From a virus: a stretch of DNA of 64,000 nucleotides. Location: positions 22,807 to 86,806 of IMG/VR virus record IMGVR_UViG_3300010399_000034; one strand, given 5' to 3'. Shown here in pieces: positions 3,296 to 53,580 of the stretch (position 1 is the stretch's first letter; the number at the start of each line of letters is the position of its first letter). The translations under genes and the position numbers were made by a program. A model generated the notes under the pieces. It ran no database searches. It was not told where the DNA came from and saw only the letters and a program-made list of their open reading frames with translations.

Positions 3296-4051
3296 ATGCC
3301 GAGTGAAGCGAACGACGAACGGATTTGGTGGGATGCGGCCGCGGTCGACATTCAATCCGCGAAGGGCAAGATCGCAGCGGACGAGTCAGCGTGGAGCGGC
3401 GAGCTCCTCGAGCGTTGCCTCGAGCAGATCATACCGACACTCGATGCTCACTGCGATCGGGCGAAGCCGGCGTGCGTCCTCGATCTCGGCTGCGGCATAG
3501 GGCGGCTCACGATTCCGATCTCGCAACGACGGCTCAACTGGACGCTGCACGGCGTGGACATCTCGTGGAACATGATCGAGCTTGCCTACAAGCTCGACGC
3601 CCACATTCAATGGAGCACGTGCAACGGACGAACGCTGCCGTACGACGAAGCAGCATTCGATGCCGTGTACTCGATGATCACACTTCAGCACCTCCCGCGC
3701 GAAGCGCAGCGTGGCTACATCCATGAAGTCGCGCGTGTGCTTCTTCCAGGAGGCGTCTTTCGCTTCCAGGTGCTTGAAGGAACGGCTGAGTCGTTCATGT
3801 GGAACGAACTAGACGAGGCGTATCTTCATGCGTCGTGTGCGGCGACAGGGTTGAAGATCACTGCGCTCAATCGCGTCGCACCGCTTTCGGGCGGCGATGC
3901 GAAGGTGCTCTGGGTGACCGCGGTGAAGCGTGACGCCACTCCGCCGGCGGCCGAGGAGCTCACGCCTGCCGAGGTGCCTTCGAAGAAGCCGAAGGCGGCC
4001 ACCAAGAAGGACGTGAAGAAGACGACAACCAAGCGCGGGAGGAAGTCATGA
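3296..4051 (+). CDS. Class I SAM-dependent methyltransferase with Lys-rich C-terminal tail
   Basis: VLDLGCGIG, GVDIS, LPYDEAAFD, RVLLPGG; tail PSKKPKAATKKDVKKTTTKRGRKS. Confidence 0.9.
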   Translation: MPSEANDERIWWDAAAVDIQSAKGKIAADESAWSGELLERCLEQIIPTLDAHCDRAKPACVLDLGCGIGRLTIPISQRRLNWTLHGVDISWNMIELAYKLDAHIQWSTCNGRTLPYDEAAFDAVYSMITLQHLPREAQRGYIHEVARVLLPGGVFRFQVLEGTAESFMWNELDEAYLHASCAATGLKITALNRVAPLSGGDAKVLWVTAVKRDATPPAAEELTPAEVPSKKPKAATKKDVKKTTTKRGRKS

Positions 4052-4167
4052 ATCTCGACCTGAAACAGCCAGCGAGTTTCCTTCTGTGGAGCGTTGCGGT
4101 GTTGGTGTTCGCTGTGATCGCACGTCTGGGGTGGGAGCTTGGTGGTCGGCTCTGGACGATCTTCTGA
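4048..4167 (+). CDS. 39-aa hydrophobic peptide (MNLDLKQPASFLLWSVAVLVFAVIARLGWELGGRLWTIF)
   Basis: Below the ORF-track cutoff; ATGA overlap upstream and TGATG overlap downstream. Confidence 0.65.
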   Translation: MNLDLKQPASFLLWSVAVLVFAVIARLGWELGGRLWTIF

Positions 4168-5231
4168 TGCGCACGCAGATCACACACCTGAAGCTCGCGC
4201 GCTATCCGGAGCTCCTCGCCGGGCCCGTGCGTCCAATACATTGGGACGTCGACCCGAGCTCGGTGTGCGATCATCGCTGCCGCGGATGCCCGTACATCTT
4301 CGACGGGCCTATCGATCCGATGCTCGGTGTCGTTCGTCCCGAGTCGCACGTTGCGCGTCGTACGCTACTCGAGCTCGCGACCTTCTTGCGCTTCCTCGAC
4401 CAGGCGGTCGAGAACGGTTGTAAGGCCATCACGTTCGTCGGCGGAGGCGAGCCGACGATCCATCCTGACTTCACGCGCATGATGCAGGCTGCAACGGAAC
4501 GCGGTGTGAAGTTCGGGGTCATCACGCACCTCGGGCGCAAGTACAGTCCGGACTTCTTCAAAGCACTCGCGCACGCGACGTGGGTGCGCGTCAGCGTGAA
4601 CGCGGGGACGCCGGACACGTACCAGCGCCATCAGGGCAAGGACCACTTCACGCAGGCGATCGACAACATGGAGACGGCGGCCGAGCACGGGACGCGCGTC
4701 GGCATGTCGTTCTTGATCACGAACGACAACTACGAAGAGATCGTGCTCGCAGCGGCGCATACCAAGGCCGTCGGCGGCCACTTCATTCAGTACAAGCCGA
4801 TCATCGAGCTCGAGCTCGGTAAGGCCTACGAGGGCATCGAAGAGGCGATCGCGAAGCGGCTCGAGGCCGCTCGTGGTCTCGTCGAAGACGGCTTCCAGGT
4901 CATCGATCAGTGGTCCTCGCGCTTCGAGGAGCTCCGTCGCCACGAGCGTGGCGAGTTCAAGGGGCTGTGTCACGTCCCACGTTTCAATCCGAAGCTCGGC
5001 GCCAACGGCATCGTCTACACGTGCTGCGAGCTCGCATACTCCGAAGAGGGCGCGATCGGCTCCATCTACGACGAGCCGCTAGTCGACATCCTCGAGCGCG
5101 CTGGTAAGAAGTGTATGGAGATGAGCAAGTGCCCGCACTGTTGGGACAAGCCTCTCAACACGCTGATCAACGAAGGTCGCCTCGGCGAGGCGCAGGTCCC
5201 GCCCGAGAGCATCGACAAGGAGTTCGTGTGA
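4167..5231 (+). CDS. Radical SAM protein with C-terminal SPASM/twitch-like Cys cluster
   Basis: CDHRCRGC (CxxxCxxC), GGGEP, C-terminal CHVP...TCC...CMEMSKCPHC. Confidence 0.9.
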   Translation: MRTQITHLKLARYPELLAGPVRPIHWDVDPSSVCDHRCRGCPYIFDGPIDPMLGVVRPESHVARRTLLELATFLRFLDQAVENGCKAITFVGGGEPTIHPDFTRMMQAATERGVKFGVITHLGRKYSPDFFKALAHATWVRVSVNAGTPDTYQRHQGKDHFTQAIDNMETAAEHGTRVGMSFLITNDNYEEIVLAAAHTKAVGGHFIQYKPIIELELGKAYEGIEEAIAKRLEAARGLVEDGFQVIDQWSSRFEELRRHERGEFKGLCHVPRFNPKLGANGIVYTCCELAYSEEGAIGSIYDEPLVDILERAGKKCMEMSKCPHCWDKPLNTLINEGRLGEAQVPPESIDKEFV

Positions 5232-12736: not shown

Positions 12737-12760
12737 TGTTCACCACCCTTCTTTCAACGA

Positions 12761-12923
12761 TCCCGCCCGGCCGAGTCGAACGGCCGATCCGCGTCTCACA
12801 TGTGCTCTCGCTCTTTCATTACGGGGTGCCTGGCTGGCTGCCCCGTTCGAGGTGCCCGCTAGACGGCGCCGCACAGTCGATGAATGCGAGGGCGCGCTTA
12901 TACGCGGCGAACCCACGGCGGGT
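12761..12923 (-). ncRNA. tRNA-like (tmRNA-TLD-like) structured RNA with a large internal domain
   Basis: Acceptor-like CCCGCC/GGCGGG; loop GTGGGTTCG; helix CCGCGT/ACGCGG; T-arm CGGCCG-TTCGACT-CGGCCG; fills the intergenic gap. Confidence 0.6.
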
Positions 12924-12927
12924 AGTT

Positions 12928-13227
12928 CTAACGCTTGTTCAATCGACGCTGCTCGACCCCTTCATAGATGTTCAATCGACGCTGCTCCTCGAGCATTGCC
13001 CGGCGCTCCGTTTCGATCTTGTTGAGGTCGATCTCGAAGTAGCGCGAAAGGATTGTCTCGACCCCTTCATAGATGCGTTCGTACTCTGCGCGCTGGTCAT
13101 TCCAGCGACACAGCCTGATGGCTTCTTCCTGCGCTTCCAACCAATCGAGGAACGCACCGATCTTCTGCGAGTCGTCTTTGATCGCGTGCAAGCGCGTGTG
13201 CTCCGGGTACGGGTCGTTGTCGGGCAT
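12928..13227 (-). CDS. Hypothetical phage protein
   Basis: YPEH.RL...SQKIGAFLDWL...YFEIDL.KIE.ERR. Confidence 0.65.
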   Translation of the reverse strand: MPDNDPYPEHTRLHAIKDDSQKIGAFLDWLEAQEEAIRLCRWNDQRAEYERIYEGVETILSRYFEIDLNKIETERRAMLEEQRRLNIYEGVEQRRLNKR

Positions 13228-13587: not shown

Positions 13588-13767
13588 TCAGCGTTTGCTC
13601 TTCCGAGGACCACCCTTGCTCTTCTTCCGTTCCTTCCGGCGTCGGAGCGTCTTTGGATTGCCGTTCGCCGGCTTGGTCGAGATCTCGACGGGCGTGCTCT
13701 CGAGGAGCGCATCGAGACCGGCGATGCCCGCATTCAACGGGATGCGAATCCGCGGTACGAGCTTCAT
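13588..13767 (-). CDS. Small basic protein
   Basis: MKLVPRIRIP...RRRKERKKSKGGPRKSKR; ATGA-coupled to the recombinase. Confidence 0.45.
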   Translation of the reverse strand: MKLVPRIRIPLNAGIAGLDALLESTPVEISTKPANGNPKTLRRRKERKKSKGGPRKSKR

Positions 13768-14642
13768 GCGTCCCTCATCTTCTTCCGGACCTGCCGGAGT
13801 AGCTTTGCCGACTCGAGCGCGGCTGCTTCGTCGAGGTAGCCGTCGGTCGTCTCGGGCGAGTCGTGGTTCAAGATCTTCTGAACAGCGAACCTGTTACCAG
13901 AGATCATGCCTGCTTGCAATGCTACGGTGCGACGAAGCCGATGCAAATAGATTCTGTCCTCGATGCCCGCAGCGGCCGCGAGCTCGTGAAGCTTGCGCCG
14001 ACAGGCCTGATACGCTGCGCCGTTCGCGGTCCAGTCGTCCGTCTTGCTGACGGCCGTGGCGACGAGCTGACCTTCGCCGAGGCGATCGCGCAGGCGCTTC
14101 CATTCCCGCTTGGCGCCGAGCACCGAATAGACGATCGGCTTACTCCCCTTCACCACGATCCGTGTGATCCCGTCCTCGCGTGCGAATCCGGCATCGATGA
14201 CCCCAGCGTCGGTCCGCAGCACGTCCGAGACGCGCAGAGCCGAGCTGCACATCACGTCGATCACCCGGCCGGCCGTCGTCTCGTCTGCCTCTACGAGTCG
14301 AAGGAACGGCCTCCACAGCTCGATCGGGATGGACACGGCCTCCTTGAGCCGCTTGGGCTCCTTGCGCCTCTTCCTCTTGCGGTGCGACGCCGGCTCGGGC
14401 GGGAGCTCGGCGGGCGGTGGAAGCCTGTTCCGGCGCCCCTCAGATTCGCAGAAGTCGGCCCAGAGGGCCCACGCCCAGCGGTAGTCACGCAGGCGCTTGC
14501 GGAGCATTTGCGAGGCCGGCGGGCTCGTCCCGTGGTCGCGCATCGTCCTCACGTCGTTCGCAGCCTTCCGCGCCGAGGTGATCGCCAGCTTCTCGCGATC
14601 GATCATCCACGCACGAAAGCGGTCGAGTGCTTCGGCGTTCAC
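13764..14642 (-). CDS. Tyrosine recombinase/integrase
   Basis: Catalytic R (ALRVSD), K (VKGSK), HxxR (HRLRRT), H and Y (LNHDSPETTDGY); GTG start overlaps the upstream stop. Confidence 0.9.
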   Translation of the reverse strand: MNAEALDRFRAWMIDREKLAITSARKAANDVRTMRDHGTSPPASQMLRKRLRDYRWAWALWADFCESEGRRNRLPPPAELPPEPASHRKRKRRKEPKRLKEAVSIPIELWRPFLRLVEADETTAGRVIDVMCSSALRVSDVLRTDAGVIDAGFAREDGITRIVVKGSKPIVYSVLGAKREWKRLRDRLGEGQLVATAVSKTDDWTANGAAYQACRRKLHELAAAAGIEDRIYLHRLRRTVALQAGMISGNRFAVQKILNHDSPETTDGYLDEAAALESAKLLRQVRKKMRDA

Positions 14643-15130
14643 TTGGCCCTCGTGTATTCGTGGCCGCTCTCGGTGAGCTGCCAGATGCTTCCACCGCGAT
14701 ACGCGCCAACGGAGAATGCGAGATCGCGACGTTTGAGCGCGTACAACGTCGCGTGGTGAAACGACCGCACCGATCCGCCGTGATCGATCGCGCGAAGGCA
14801 CGCGAGCTGCACCTTGTTCAGGCGCCACTGGCGCGGGCGTGGACTCCGGATCTCGACGACGCGCTTGGTGATCGAAGGCCCCATGCAGCAAAGCCGAGCT
14901 CGGCCGAAGAACGAATCGTTCAGCGCGCACGTGCGGATCGCCGTCGCCGCGTTCTTCTGTTGCGCCCAAAGCAGCGCGCAGCGGACATGGAACGTCCAGC
15001 ACCCGAGCTGCACCGGGTTGAATGCGAGCTTCTTACAGCGATCGCACGGCACCATCTTGCGGACTTCGTGCGATGTCTTCGGGCGATCGCATCGGCACGG
15101 CCCTTCTTTGATTTTGAGCTTGGGCATCAC
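14639..15130 (-). CDS. Hypothetical protein, Cys-rich N-terminus plus wHTH-like C-terminus
   Basis: CRC..CDRC; TLYALKRRDL...WQLTESG. Confidence 0.5.
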   Translation of the reverse strand: MMPKLKIKEGPCRCDRPKTSHEVRKMVPCDRCKKLAFNPVQLGCWTFHVRCALLWAQQKNAATAIRTCALNDSFFGRARLCCMGPSITKRVVEIRSPRPRQWRLNKVQLACLRAIDHGGSVRSFHHATLYALKRRDLAFSVGAYRGGSIWQLTESGHEYTRAK

Positions 15131-17324: not shown

Positions 17325-17410
17325 TGGAGCGCCCGGGGGCTCGAACCCCGGACACAGGACTCAGCATGCGATCTTCGCCGCAGCAGCCTGCATGCACCAA
17401 CGTGCGCCCC
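17325..17410 (-). ncRNA. tRNA-like RNA with alanine identity elements (mini tmRNA-TLD-like)
   Basis: GGGGCGC/GCGCTCC-A acceptor with G3.U70; 13-nt unpaired D region; long hairpin replacing the anticodon arm; CCGGGG-TTCGAGC-CCCCGG T-arm. Confidence 0.7.
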
Positions 17411-19198: not shown

Positions 19199-19254
19199 TT
19201 GATCTGCGCTCGCACGGTGCGCTCGGATGGAGCGCACCTAGCGGCCGTAGATCA
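19199..19254 (-). repeat. Intergenic conserved hairpin, copy D
   Basis: TGATCT-AC-GGCCGCTAG-[GTGCGCTC/GAGCGCAC]-CGTGCGAGCG-C-AGATCA. Confidence 0.85.
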
Positions 19255-19973: not shown

Positions 19974-20624
19974 ATGAAGCGCTACAGCGAATGGTCCCCG
20001 AGTCCGCACGACACCAAGGGGCTCAATCTGCCGGACCGGCAGGACTGGATCGTGGTCCCCACGATTCGCGCGCGCGACTCGGGCCCGCTGGACGAGTCCA
20101 ACTTCGCTGTGGCTCTCGCGACGCTCGGCGGCGAGAACGCCGGAGAAGACGAGAACGGCGAGAACGGCATGATCGAGACGCACTCGTTCAATCACTGGGC
20201 GTGCGGATGGTTCGAGATCATCCTGGCTCACCCTTCGCGCGAGCTCGAAGTACAGGCGATCGCCGATCGGCTCGAAAACTATCCGATCTTGGACGAGAAC
20301 GACCTGTCGGAGCGTGAGCTCGAAGCAGAAGGGGAGGGATGGGAGAGCTACGCCCGGCGCGACGTCACGCGCAAGCTAGTCGAGGATTTCGGCCTCAGCG
20401 ATGCGGCGGAAGCCTTGCTCGACGAATCGGGCGAGACGATCTACGCGGCGTTGATCTGCGGGCACCACTACTCGGAAGGGATCAAGACTCAGATCCAGGT
20501 CGAGCACGACGACGAAGGGCCTCGCTTCGATACGGATCAACTCGATCCGATGACGCGCGAGGAAATGGCGTTGCTTCTTCGGCTCTGCCGCAAAGAGAAG
20601 CGCGCCGCGATGGCCAAAGTCTGA
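19974..20624 (+). CDS. Conserved phage early protein
   Basis: RDSGPLDESNF, FNHWACGWFE, LENYPILDE. Confidence 0.75.
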   Translation: MKRYSEWSPSPHDTKGLNLPDRQDWIVVPTIRARDSGPLDESNFAVALATLGGENAGEDENGENGMIETHSFNHWACGWFEIILAHPSRELEVQAIADRLENYPILDENDLSERELEAEGEGWESYARRDVTRKLVEDFGLSDAAEALLDESGETIYAALICGHHYSEGIKTQIQVEHDDEGPRFDTDQLDPMTREEMALLLRLCRKEKRAAMAKV

Positions 20625-22612: not shown

Positions 22613-22839
22613 GCCGGAAGATCGTTCACACGATGAGCGACGGAACGAGGATCGAGCTCGAACGCGAGGCGTACGTCTCCGTCATTGCAACAGACGCGCG
22701 CAGCGCGCTCGCGTTCTTCGGATTCCGCCCTGGCGAAGCGTGGGCGGTCGACGCCGGCCCGCCGGCCGATCCGCACCGCTGGAAGCCGAACGCGCGCCGC
22801 TGGCACGTGTACCGCAACAAGGGGGACATGCCGTCATGA
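22609..22839 (+). CDS. Hypothetical protein
   Basis: ATGA-coupled. Confidence 0.5.
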   Translation: MSRKIVHTMSDGTRIELEREAYVSVIATDARSALAFFGFRPGEAWAVDAGPPADPHRWKPNARRWHVYRNKGDMPS

Positions 22840-50881: not shown

Positions 50882-53580
50882 CCTATCCTCCTGGCCCAAT
50901 CGAGCGTGCGTTGCAAGCCGGCGTAGAGCTCTTCGCGCGGAAGCAAGTCTGCGAGCTCGTTCGGCGCTTCGTCGCCGGTGACATCGAGGATCGGCTGACC
51001 CTTCCGATCGAATGCACGTGCGATGATGTCATCGATCGTGTTCGACGCGACAGGCCAGTACGAAGTGACCGGCCACGCCTGACCGATGCGGTGCGCCCGC
51101 TTCTCGGCCTGAAGCATCTTCGCCGGCACCCAATCGAGGTCGTGCATGATAACGTGCCGCGCCTTGTGGAGCGTCACACCGACGCCGAGCGAGTCGATCG
51201 TTGCAATGATAGCGCCGCCCATCGACTGAAACTCGTCGACTACTTCGTTTCGTACCTTGTGCGTCATGCCGCCGTGGACGACGTGGATCTTGCCGAAGCC
51301 GGCATCGTAGAGCTTGCCGAAGAGTCGCTCACACATCTTGCGCTCCCAACAGAAGATGATGACCGACTCGTCCTGCTCAAGGACGTTCTTCGCGAGCTGC
51401 ACGGTTGTATCGAACTTCGCGCGCGAGGTCAGCTTCCGCAGACGACCGATGTAGCCGAGTGTCTGCTTCGAAGCGCGACGATGGAGGACGGCTTGAATAA
51501 GCTCCTCCATCGGAATGTGCTCGAGGATCTCTTGGTAGTCCGCCATCTGTTCTTGATCGAGCTCGACGTGGATGAGCTGACGCGTGAGCGGCGGGAGCTG
51601 AAGTCCGGCGCTCTCGACGTCGCGACGGATATAACAGCATGCGAGACGCTGCTTGAGCTCGTCCACGTTGGTCGCCTCGACGCCATCCTTGAGGCCGTAC
51701 TGCGTTGTCTGCGCGCCGCAGTAGCGGATGCGAAAGTCGCTCGGCTTGCCCCACGTCCACTGCCCGGTTGCGAGCGTCAAGAGAAACCAGAACTCCTCGA
51801 CGCGGTTGAGGATCGGCGTGCCAGTGAGGATGAAGCGATACGGCGCACTCGAGACGGCGAGGGCGACAGCGGCACCACGTCGCGAGCGGCTGTTCTTCAC
51901 CATGTGCGCCTCGTCGAGCACAGCGACGCACGGCCGACGGATCGCAATGTGACTCCACCAGGCTTTCAGGATGTCGTAATGGCAGAAGATCCAGTCGACG
52001 TCCGCGGGAATCATCGTCGGCTTCATGCCACGACAGACGAAGACGTTCGTGATCCCGCACGCTGCGAGCTCGCGAATCCAGACTTCCTCGAGCGCCTTAG
52101 GCGCAGTGATCAATGCTGGATGCCAGAAGCCTCGATCGCGCGAGTACGACTTCCGCAGGAGCTCGCCAGCAAAGCCAGCAACACGCGAGTTGTGCGTAAG
52201 AATCGCGTGCTCGGTCACATACAACGCGTCTTCAGCGTCAACTGCAATACAAACCGATGCCTGTTCGCCTACGTATTCAACCGTAGTAACAGTTCGGCAC
52301 GGACGCGCCAAACGGCCCGGCTTATAGCGATCTAGTTTTCGAGCAACTGTGAACGGAGCAATCGACTGCGGAAGACGAAGCCGCACATGATATTCCCTCG
52401 GCTTATTTTCCTGACTTCTGTCGTAGGAACGAACACTTGCAATCCCGCCAAGACATTCAACGAGCTCGCGAACGTCATCTGCAAGTCCTGCACTTATCGT
52501 GTGATACGTCAACTTGCTTCGCGTAGCACTACATGAACCGTCGCCGTCCATCAGCCCATGAAGCAATGCAACACGATCAGCGATAGAAGCACGAAGGTAG
52601 CTCTGCGGGATCCGCTTCGTGGCGCTAAGCTTGTTTAGCCCTAGTGCTCTAATACGAGGAAGAAGCCCAGGGTACGTCGAATGAATCACATTGGCGTAGG
52701 CGCTCTCGCCCCCCAAAACAACACCGTCTGCCAAAAGTCGCTTTTTGATCGTAGGCCAGTCGTGCTTGGAAACAACGAGCTTCGGCGTGCTGTACGCCAT
52801 GGAACCATTGGCGATAAGCTGACCAAGCAAGTACGCCGGGATCGGCAACGTCGTCGCAACGAACTCTGCTGGTGCCGACAGCGTCGGAAGATAAAGAACA
52901 GCTTTCGCGAGATCCCGCACAGTTTCACGACGCGTCCCTCGAGACCACTGCAACGTGAGCTTTGGACGCGTCCGCAACTGTTCTGTTGTAAGCAACAACG
53001 CACGCCCGTTGCGACCAACAGTGACAGTCCAAAGGTGTTCTGCCCCCGCAAGTGTTGAGCTGTGATCGCTGAAGGTGACACGGTACGTCGGCTTTACACC
53101 TTGTGGATATACGCCAACAACGACCTTCGCCTTTCCATCAGACCCAAGCACATGATCGCCAACACGCAAATCACCGATCGGCTGCCAACCTGATGGTGTA
53201 AGCACCGGCGTCTCAACAGGCTGCTGCTTGCCGAGCCCCATTTGGTCACCGAGGACCGCGTGCGGGTGCCTAATAAGAAAACGGACGCCGACTCGTTGAT
53301 GCTGAAAGAGGCTCTGCCATGTCGGCCACAGCTCTAACGAGGTGAGCACGTCATCCAAGACAGGCATCACTGGAACAGAGATATCGAGCTTGGCAAGCCA
53401 CACACCGATCGCCGTCTCGCTCCACGCCGTGAACGGGATCTCGCAACGCCAGAGTTGATAACCGGGATCCGGCTCGCGCCAGACGACGCCGGGGATGTCG
53501 AGCACGGCCTGCGGCACGACGAACTTCTTGTCGTCTTGCACCCATAGCCACCAGAGCGACGGTCGAAGAGCCTGGATCAT
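50878..53580 (-). CDS. SNF2-family helicase, intein-containing
   Basis: DQMGLGK|S Walker A; DEAH; LTGTP..N; GVGVTL; QAEKRAHRIGQ. Confidence 0.95.
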   Translation of the reverse strand: MIQALRPSLWWLWVQDDKKFVVPQAVLDIPGVVWREPDPGYQLWRCEIPFTAWSETAIGVWLAKLDISVPVMPVLDDVLTSLELWPTWQSLFQHQRVGVRFLIRHPHAVLGDQMGLGKQQPVETPVLTPSGWQPIGDLRVGDHVLGSDGKAKVVVGVYPQGVKPTYRVTFSDHSSTLAGAEHLWTVTVGRNGRALLLTTEQLRTRPKLTLQWSRGTRRETVRDLAKAVLYLPTLSAPAEFVATTLPIPAYLLGQLIANGSMAYSTPKLVVSKHDWPTIKKRLLADGVVLGGESAYANVIHSTYPGLLPRIRALGLNKLSATKRIPQSYLRASIADRVALLHGLMDGDGSCSATRSKLTYHTISAGLADDVRELVECLGGIASVRSYDRSQENKPREYHVRLRLPQSIAPFTVARKLDRYKPGRLARPCRTVTTVEYVGEQASVCIAVDAEDALYVTEHAILTHNSRVAGFAGELLRKSYSRDRGFWHPALITAPKALEEVWIRELAACGITNVFVCRGMKPTMIPADVDWIFCHYDILKAWWSHIAIRRPCVAVLDEAHMVKNSRSRRGAAVALAVSSAPYRFILTGTPILNRVEEFWFLLTLATGQWTWGKPSDFRIRYCGAQTTQYGLKDGVEATNVDELKQRLACCYIRRDVESAGLQLPPLTRQLIHVELDQEQMADYQEILEHIPMEELIQAVLHRRASKQTLGYIGRLRKLTSRAKFDTTVQLAKNVLEQDESVIIFCWERKMCERLFGKLYDAGFGKIHVVHGGMTHKVRNEVVDEFQSMGGAIIATIDSLGVGVTLHKARHVIMHDLDWVPAKMLQAEKRAHRIGQAWPVTSYWPVASNTIDDIIARAFDRKGQPILDVTGDEAPNELADLLPREELYAGLQRTLDWARRIG
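52189..53226 (-). mobile_element. Class 3-type intein (Gln1) with LAGLIDADG endonuclease (346 aa)
   Basis: GK|QQPVETPVLTP...EHLW...VCIAV...LTHN|S; LHGLMDGDG; visibly lower GC than the flanks. Confidence 0.9.

Follow-up and report, generated by a model that had tools for sequence, protein, structure and literature searches.

In plant mitochondria, tRNA-like structures termed t-elements are located at the ends of mRNAs and are "most likely" cis-signals for RNase Z and/or RNase P, according to the accessible part of that report (Forner et al. 2007, PMC1920247). The mycobacteriophage DS6A carries a transfer-messenger RNA (tmRNA) that consists of the tRNA-like domain (TLD) only and appears as "Standard, no CDS" in the available portions of the sources (PMC4131195, PMC11915505). 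In genomic islands that target tRNA or tmRNA genes, the attP site carries a fragment of the target, as outlined in the accessible text on Islander (PMC4383910). Here we analyzed a tRNA-like element, E1, which precedes a ParB-like gene on the minus strand of a 64,000-nt stretch of DNA (positions 22,807 to 86,806 of the IMG/VR virus record IMGVR_UViG_3300010399_000034; this whole stretch is called the window below). E1 occupies window positions 12922-12762 and was examined over 12761-12923 (163 nt). The source record is an 86.8-kb soil virus with direct terminal repeats. Our leading, still tentative reading is that E1 may be a tRNA-like processing module in the ParB leader that acts in cis.

All motifs quoted for E1 in the initial annotation were recovered on the minus strand where it had placed them, and the architecture is indeed that of the top of a tRNA (Table 1). 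When the 163 nt are folded in isolation, the minimum free energy (MFE) structure has precisely this architecture, with all three inner helices named for the insert. The loop of the T-arm-like hairpin (12780-12774, TTCGACT) is of the TTCRANN type and is closed by a G-C pair. The T-stem and the acceptor-like stem form a stack of 12 bp, which is split 6+6 and not 7+5 and is followed by an unpaired discriminator base. CCA is not encoded; the 3' end is an A, followed by UCG. The lack of alanine identity was confirmed, as pair 3-70 is C-G, and none of the three reading frames of E1 ends in Ala-Ala-stop, again as annotated.

E1 lies on the coding strand of a leftward operon of ~33 mostly overlapping genes. 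Its spacer (12927-12737, 191 nt) is the largest non-coding gap of this operon, and the TAG stop codon of the upstream gene (12930-12928) is located 5 nt before the acceptor stem. Thus, as for t-elements, an acceptor/T-arm minihelix is found at a gene border, here between a stop codon and the ParB leader, with a fold that is possible and not dominant. Like the t-elements, in so far as the accessible text describes them (PMC1920247), E1 is tRNA-like, has no working anticodon arm and would be part of a longer transcript at an mRNA border. It differs from them in belonging to a bacterial virus and not to an organelle, in its 6+6 instead of 7+5 stack and in its structured insert of 107 nt, and the parallel is a presumed one.

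In the favored reading the spacer would be transcribed together with the operon that runs leftward from int to ParB. The spacer RNA would adopt the shape of the top half of a tRNA, with a 12-bp minihelix, a T-loop, a GG-bearing strand and the large insert in place of the anticodon arm. RNase P of the host would then cut 5' of C12922, and RNase Z or a similar enzyme just after A12761. These cuts would separate the variable cassette on the int side from the ParB message, which would keep a 24-nt leader with the ribosome-binding site, and an RNA of ~162 nt would be released as a by-product. Transcription, both cuts and the effect on ParB are what we infer from the sequence of E1, its possible fold, its position and one analogue in another virus.

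Several observations argue for a processing module. E1 fills the largest gap on the coding strand, and the 58-codon open reading frame (ORF) that overlaps it (12916-12740) is non-coding. The GC content at its three codon positions is 0.64/0.72/0.59, compared with 0.71/0.41/0.85 in ParB, and a PHROG match is absent. Within the spacer, no promoter-like or terminator-like signal was detected on the gene strand. Between 11500 and 15500 no promoter-like (sigma-70) site was found, and the four terminator-like sites in this region are all on the plus strand and all outside the spacer. A parS or operator array was likewise rejected, as no repeated or palindromic word of the spacer recurs in the 86.8-kb genome except the ribosome-binding leader. 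In addition, a look-alike of equal geometry occupies the ParB slot of another virus, a tRNA-Gln and a TLD-only RNA precede ParB elsewhere, and six of the seven matches outside the training set that were obtained with a joint covariance model are genuine tRNAs or the TLD-only RNA. Finally, RNA hairpins beginning at stop codons are present in further gaps of the operon, which makes a punctuation of this operon by RNA plausible.

Loci with related ParB genes were obtained by an alignment-driven scan (108 loci, designated L0xx). Script-based descriptor and ARAGORN scans covered all of them. Covariance searches covered the window and 95 of the 108 loci on both strands (544 kb); 13 loci (L033, L036, L038, L039, L047, L050, L051, L054, L056, L059, L071, L093 and L095) had been judged duplicates because of identical match statistics and were dropped.

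ARAGORN called tRNA or tmRNA genes in 6 of the 108 loci. A tRNA-Gln(UUG) is located ~50 nt before ParB in four of these (L031:2877-2950, L032:1088-1161, L033:2877-2950 and L078:689-760), which were counted as one lineage since their upstream DNA is alike. By visual reading, a sigma-70-like promoter precedes this tRNA gene in all four, and the order promoter - tRNA-Gln - ParB implies a putative co-transcript of tRNA and ParB. These units resemble E1 in that a tRNA shape lies 5' of ParB on the same strand. With a tRNA-shaped RNA directly 5' of ParB, the 5' end of an mRNA would arise from the 3' processing of the tRNA. However, the tRNA-Gln units have an anticodon and a sigma-70-like promoter, and E1 has neither. 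The tRNA-tufB operon of E. coli is the classical example of tRNA-mRNA co-transcription. In L003, a 148-kb virus, a full tmRNA (3875-4243) lies 41 nt after ParB, and in L008 a tRNA-Arg is found ~290 nt after ParB. Furthermore, a 111-nt TLD-only tmRNA-like RNA lies ~160 nt before a phage ParB (L052:2728-2841). Its 7-bp acceptor stem contains G3:U70, and the mRNA domain is replaced by a segment of 50 nt. ARAGORN did not call it at default thresholds, and its score with the tmRNA model RF00023 is 32.8 bits (gathering score 47). In the same Rfam searches the L003 tmRNA scored 118.8 bits and the tRNA-Gln of L078 63.9 bits (RF00005), and these three RNAs served as controls. The ParB flank is thus a recurrent home of tRNA-type RNAs in this loose group of viruses. 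Two further RNAs were noted upstream in L003, one of 150 nt (2189-2338) that combines a T-arm and a 7-bp acceptor with an insert of ~110 nt and encodes its ACCA end, and one of 88 nt (1564-1651) with acceptor and T-arm; neither was called by ARAGORN or matched in Rfam.

The analogue of E1 was found with a covariance model built from E1 alone (R1). With default filters R1 found only E1 itself. With filters off, the best non-self match in the 544 kb was L042:2854-2973 with 20.5 bits, followed by matches of 18.5, 17.6, 17.6 and 17.0 bits; several of those ranked after these are real tRNAs. The L042 element lies on the coding strand; it begins 2 nt past an upstream stop codon, and its end precedes the ATG of a ParB with 41% identity to the window ParB by 27 nt. 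Column by column, its core agrees with that of E1: the acceptor and the T-stem comprise 6 bp each, the joining strand is 9 nt long, helix 2 has 6 bp (7 bp in the free fold), the T-loop reads UUCGAYU, and an unpaired A follows. The linker is 3 nt long, compared with 2 nt in E1. Three of the 18 core pairs are G-U, and pairing is possible on the coding strand only. As the structure model itself picked the match, these G-U changes are not independent evidence of covariation. As in the window, the order in L042 is stop codon, element, a leader of 24-27 nt and ParB, with a related integrase nearby. In contrast to the window, the L042 integrase is located downstream of ParB. The insert of the L042 element (~63 nt) is unrelated to the 107-nt insert of E1. 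Outside the T-loop the two elements show no similarity in primary sequence, and a MAFFT alignment is meaningless. A joint model of E1 and the L042 element (R2) revealed no further member in 561 kb. Its other matches at E < 10 were, in six of seven cases, authentic tRNAs or the TLD-only RNA of L052. In 36 whole viral records R2 gave no match at E ≤ 0.1, an empty answer that shows nothing by itself.

Several findings weigh against a processing module. The score of the L042 match is just 2 bits above the best noise match, and its E value of 0.012 in 83 kb scales to ~0.08 for 544 kb with a rough calibration. With a score this marginal, the link between E1 and L042 rests largely on the coincidence of position. 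Among the sequences searched, neither element has close relatives in which covariation would show. ARAGORN made no call in the window, also with introns allowed at the default threshold, and Rfam gave no window match at gathering thresholds. No tRNA (RF00005), tmRNA or tRNA-like family matched at E ≤ 10, either in 701 nt around E1 or in the bare spacer. In line with the initial annotation, E1 is therefore claimed by no Rfam family. An interrupted tRNA was rejected as well; with introns and a threshold relaxed to 80%, ARAGORN made 80 calls in 14 kb, which is noise. By ARAGORN and RF00005, E1 is without the D-arm of a cloverleaf and without an anticodon arm with its 7-nt loop. It also lacks the identity features of tmRNA, having no G3:U70, an acceptor of 6 instead of 7 bp and no ACCA end. 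A tag frame was not found in E1, a feature that the TLD-only form does not require. E1 is outside the tRNA and tmRNA families as defined. Moreover, the virus genome contains no tRNA or tmRNA gene, and 20 neighbouring operon proteins had no Pfam match above the gathering threshold, hence no RNA-related domain.

The closest relative, L030, also speaks against a processing module. The two viruses are 78% identical in int and 79.5% in the ParB DNA, where the identity sets in 16 nt before the start. However, the L030 interval between int and ParB (~1 kb) is unrelated to that of the window except for a gene-start leader word; L030 has no E1, and a coding gene abuts its ParB. Likewise, all eight loci with a homologue of the upstream gene are without a tRNA-like element after that gene. 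The structural conservation in homologues that the initial annotation had made a test of its proposal could consequently not be demonstrated, with L030 lacking E1 and one distant analogue found. The acceptor 3' strand of E1 is part of a 17-nt word that occurs in another context at L030:458-480. The shared word, 17-26 nt long, comprises the acceptor 3' strand and the gene-start leader, and in L030 it ends a small ORF after the integrase. The unrelated interval and the shared word elsewhere place E1 in a variable cassette, and the conservation of a portion of its 3' strand may have a different cause. The gene-start leader is found at window positions 13587-13563 and 12767-12742 and at L030:458-487 and 1052-1076; it consists of a GTTGAAAG-type word, then a GGGTGGTGA-type ribosome-binding site. 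It marks cassette junctions in both viruses, and the homology between window and L030 begins and ends there.

The thermodynamics of E1 point in the same direction. Its folding energy is ordinary for its composition (z -1.05), as 31 of 200 shuffled sequences folded equally well, and a better fold is obtained for its antisense strand (z -2.74). Within a context of 401 nt, pair probabilities were 0.12-0.16 for the acceptor and helix 2 (acceptor 0.12) and ~0.5 for the T-stem. The sole robust part is the insert hairpin 12846-12821 with 0.92-1.0; the remaining insert pairs had probabilities of 0.1-0.37. In seven contexts the tRNA-like fold was 0-2.8 kcal/mol above the MFE. With few flanking bases the MFE structure changes to one in which the 5' portion of the spacer is paired to the ribosome-binding region of ParB (12933-12731, minus strand). 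According to these models the tRNA-like fold of E1 is possible and competitive, undemonstrated by thermodynamics. The alternative fold seen with short flanks could itself be a translational switch in competition with the tRNA-like fold.

Much of this would be expected if the tRNA-like closure had no function and E1 were either what a recent shuffling of cassettes in the int-ParB interval had left behind or a structured leader of the ordinary kind. GC-rich sequence would then close by accident around one stable hairpin and one T-loop-like hairpin. We regard this as somewhat less likely than a processing module; the reading as chance or scar remains strong given L030, the weak thermodynamics and a duplication next to E1. 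Besides the ordinary folding energy, the low acceptor and helix-2 probabilities and the missing support from Rfam and ARAGORN, it agrees with the int-to-ParB interval being unrelated in L030 apart from the gene-start leader and with the 17-nt word around the acceptor 3' strand ending a small ORF there. A perfect 33-nt composite duplication adjoins E1 and points to a recent rearrangement. A loose descriptor of the architecture gave 0.26 hits per shuffled 64-kb window and at least one hit in 17 of 100 shuffles. On the other hand, with a strict descriptor that was written post hoc, after E1 was seen, and demands at least six perfect pairs in each of the three helices, E1 was the sole match in the window itself, and a match occurred in 1 of 400 shuffles. 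Among ~250,000 scanned windows such a 1-in-400 event is expected many times. Nevertheless, the rare strict architecture lies exactly in the largest gap and on the coding strand, the independent virus L042 has equal geometry in the equal slot, and relatives place real tRNA-type genes in the ParB slot. Alternatively, E1 might be a DNA site, either attP or a site of resolution, for the tyrosine recombinase encoded nearby, which we consider unlikely. Its core would be the 6-7-6 inverted repeat of the T-arm, possibly the 3' end of a host tRNA-type gene that is restored on integration. The integrase gene is indeed close (~850 nt), and L042 encodes a related enzyme (42% identity over 74 aa) ~1.3 kb from its element; among the 108 ParB loci, an integrase was detectable with these two queries only in L030 and L042. 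The 6-7-6 repeat looks like a core site, and two perfect 19-nt direct repeats lie on one side of E1. E1 also shares with the attP sites of such islands (Islander, PMC4383910) a tRNA-type T-arm and acceptor 3' strand near a tyrosine integrase gene, but no host counterpart was found. An attP site requires the 3' part alone, and E1 has in addition the 5' strand of the acceptor and a second helix. Both of these parts stand at fixed distances here and in L042, and L042 keeps the helices with G-U pairs, which are meaningful in RNA only. The 24-nt word of T-arm and acceptor 3' strand had no exact match in 185,579 species genomes, where the host is possibly absent and mismatches were disallowed; neither this 24-mer nor 20-mer words matched in IMG/VR. 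A tRNA whose 5' end is complementary to the E1 3' strand would begin with three C's, which is atypical in bacteria. The stretch was listed in one DNA run, its possible source, and in no RNA run. A single 86.7-kb contig of that run, which is not independent of the virus assembly, matches the stretch without differences; neither a joint nor a loose end falls within the spacer, but contigs are unable to prove that such ends are absent.

Two further readings assume that an RNA acts in trans. E1 and the L042 element might form an undescribed class of phage RNAs, with a 6+6-bp tRNA-like scaffold of acceptor, T-arm and GG strand, no anticodon or alanine identity and a freely exchangeable structured insert. 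Host tRNA enzymes would excise and stabilize the insert, and the scaffold would thereby be nature's equivalent of the "tRNA scaffold" used in the laboratory. The cargo would act in trans, and the cut would also make the 5' end of the ParB message in those viruses that have an int-ParB maintenance module in common. We consider this improbable. To an even smaller degree we expect an RNA resembling the TLD of tmRNA that would receive no alanine, would bind either SmpB or ribosomes and would dampen trans-translation of the host, with the insert as variable cargo. The shape is TLD-like, with a UGGnUUCG joining strand without D-stem, a GGAU linker and a T-arm, and TLD-only and full tmRNAs are found beside ParB in L052 and L003. 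E1 also resembles the TLD-only tmRNA of DS6A in being phage-borne, in having acceptor and T-arm without anticodon or tag frame and in its joining strand without D-stem. Unlike that RNA, as far as the available portions of the sources describe it, E1 fails the tmRNA model, has neither G3:U70 nor a 7-bp acceptor, contains a large insert and shows no detected promoter (PMC4131195, PMC11915505). The likeness to tmRNA that had been noted initially was not supported: RF00023 gave no match at E ≤ 10 on the spacer, compared with 32.8 bits for the TLD-only RNA of L052. Neither CCA nor a tag frame is present, no promoter or terminator of its own was detected, and the 20 tested neighbours encode no recognizable SmpB-type or RNA-handling protein.

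If E1 is real, the virus would use a tRNA shape not for decoding but for the punctuation of a long message by the tRNA enzymes of the host. The case would precede ParB, a genome-maintenance gene, and would combine an unusual 6+6 split with a large insert. In view of the tRNA-Gln, TLD-only RNA and full tmRNA found beside ParB in relatives, it would suggest the 5' flank of ParB as a preferred landing place of tRNA-type RNAs in uncultured soil viruses. If E1 is not real, it calls for caution, since GC-rich spacers can be drawn as tRNA-like folds.

Table 1. Parts of E1 and neighbouring features in the window.
Feature	Position	Strand	Remarks
Acceptor-like stem, 5' strand CCCGCC	12917..12922	-	preceded by A12923; sequence and MFE
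Single-stranded joining segment, 9 nt, GUGGGUUCG	12908..12916	-	D-loop-like, GG-bearing, without D-stem
Helix 2, 5' strand (6 bp)	12902..12907	-	replaces anticodon stem; sequence and MFE
Insert, 107 nt	12795..12901	-	nested helices; MFE
Helix 2, 3' strand	12789..12794	-	followed by 2-nt linker AU (12788-12787); sequence and MFE
T-arm-like hairpin	12768..12786	-	6-bp stem (12786-12781 / 12773-12768), 7-nt loop UUCGACU; sequence and MFE
Acceptor 3' strand GGCGGG (12767-12762) and unpaired A12761	12761..12767	-	sequence
Upstream gene, 99 aa	12928..13227	-	phrog_21869, E 3.3e-8; 8 homologues; gene-like codon-position GC
ParB leader, 24 nt	12737..12760	-	Shine-Dalgarno region 12750-12741; recurs at 13587-13563 and in L030
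ParB-like gene, 302 aa	11828..12736	-	PF17762, PF02195, phrog_1033
Tyrosine integrase	13764..15002	-	PF00589, phrog_216; ends ~850 nt upstream of E1

The assignment of the gene downstream of E1 as ParB-like is supported by Pfam and PHROGs alike. ParB has 899 homologues, and its N-terminus is conserved from Met1. Its relatives in cellular genomes (6 loci) belong to metagenome-assembled genomes of mixed phyla and give no clue to the host. A scan of IMG/VR with the ParB protein alone found no homologous locus. Blastn of 4 kb against phages gave nothing, that of the spacer against phages and plasmids only chance matches (E ≥ 0.2), and a search of the virus' own genome with E1 one match, E1 itself. 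No look-alike was present among the other scanned windows. The 99-aa product of the upstream gene is also called in the database. Two 19-nt words make up the perfect 33-nt composite duplication at the 3' end of this gene (window 12936-12987 and 13057-13075); the source of the first lies 105 nt upstream, and the second is a copy from the adjacent 33 nt. The duplication lengthens the product by 11 residues that are not present in homologues of the gene. From its sequence, the duplication looks like a recent template-switch or recombination scar.

Hairpins of ~55 nt that start at upstream stop codons form a family in four other gaps of the operon (19251-19187, 18406-18340, 17925-17846 and 16666-16568). 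E1 was considered as a member and rejected, as its sequence differs from those at 19251, 18406, 17925 and 16666. The loose descriptor gave a further match of 312 nt at 52044-52355 on the plus strand, and an isolated 6-bp T-arm-like hairpin is present at 20205-20223 on the plus strand; both are probably due to chance. E1 had also been joined with an element at 17325, which occupies another gap of the operon, into one family of viral TLD-like RNAs. The 6-bp T-stem is indeed common to both, but the grouping was not supported, as R1 with filters off gave 17326-17408 a score of 7.1 bits (E 8.8), within the range of noise, and R2 did not list this element at E ≤ 10. The acceptor/T-arm fold of the 17325 element (17410-17326, minus strand) persists in transcript context, and its sole Rfam hint is mascRNA-menRNA with 16.3 bits (E 0.4).

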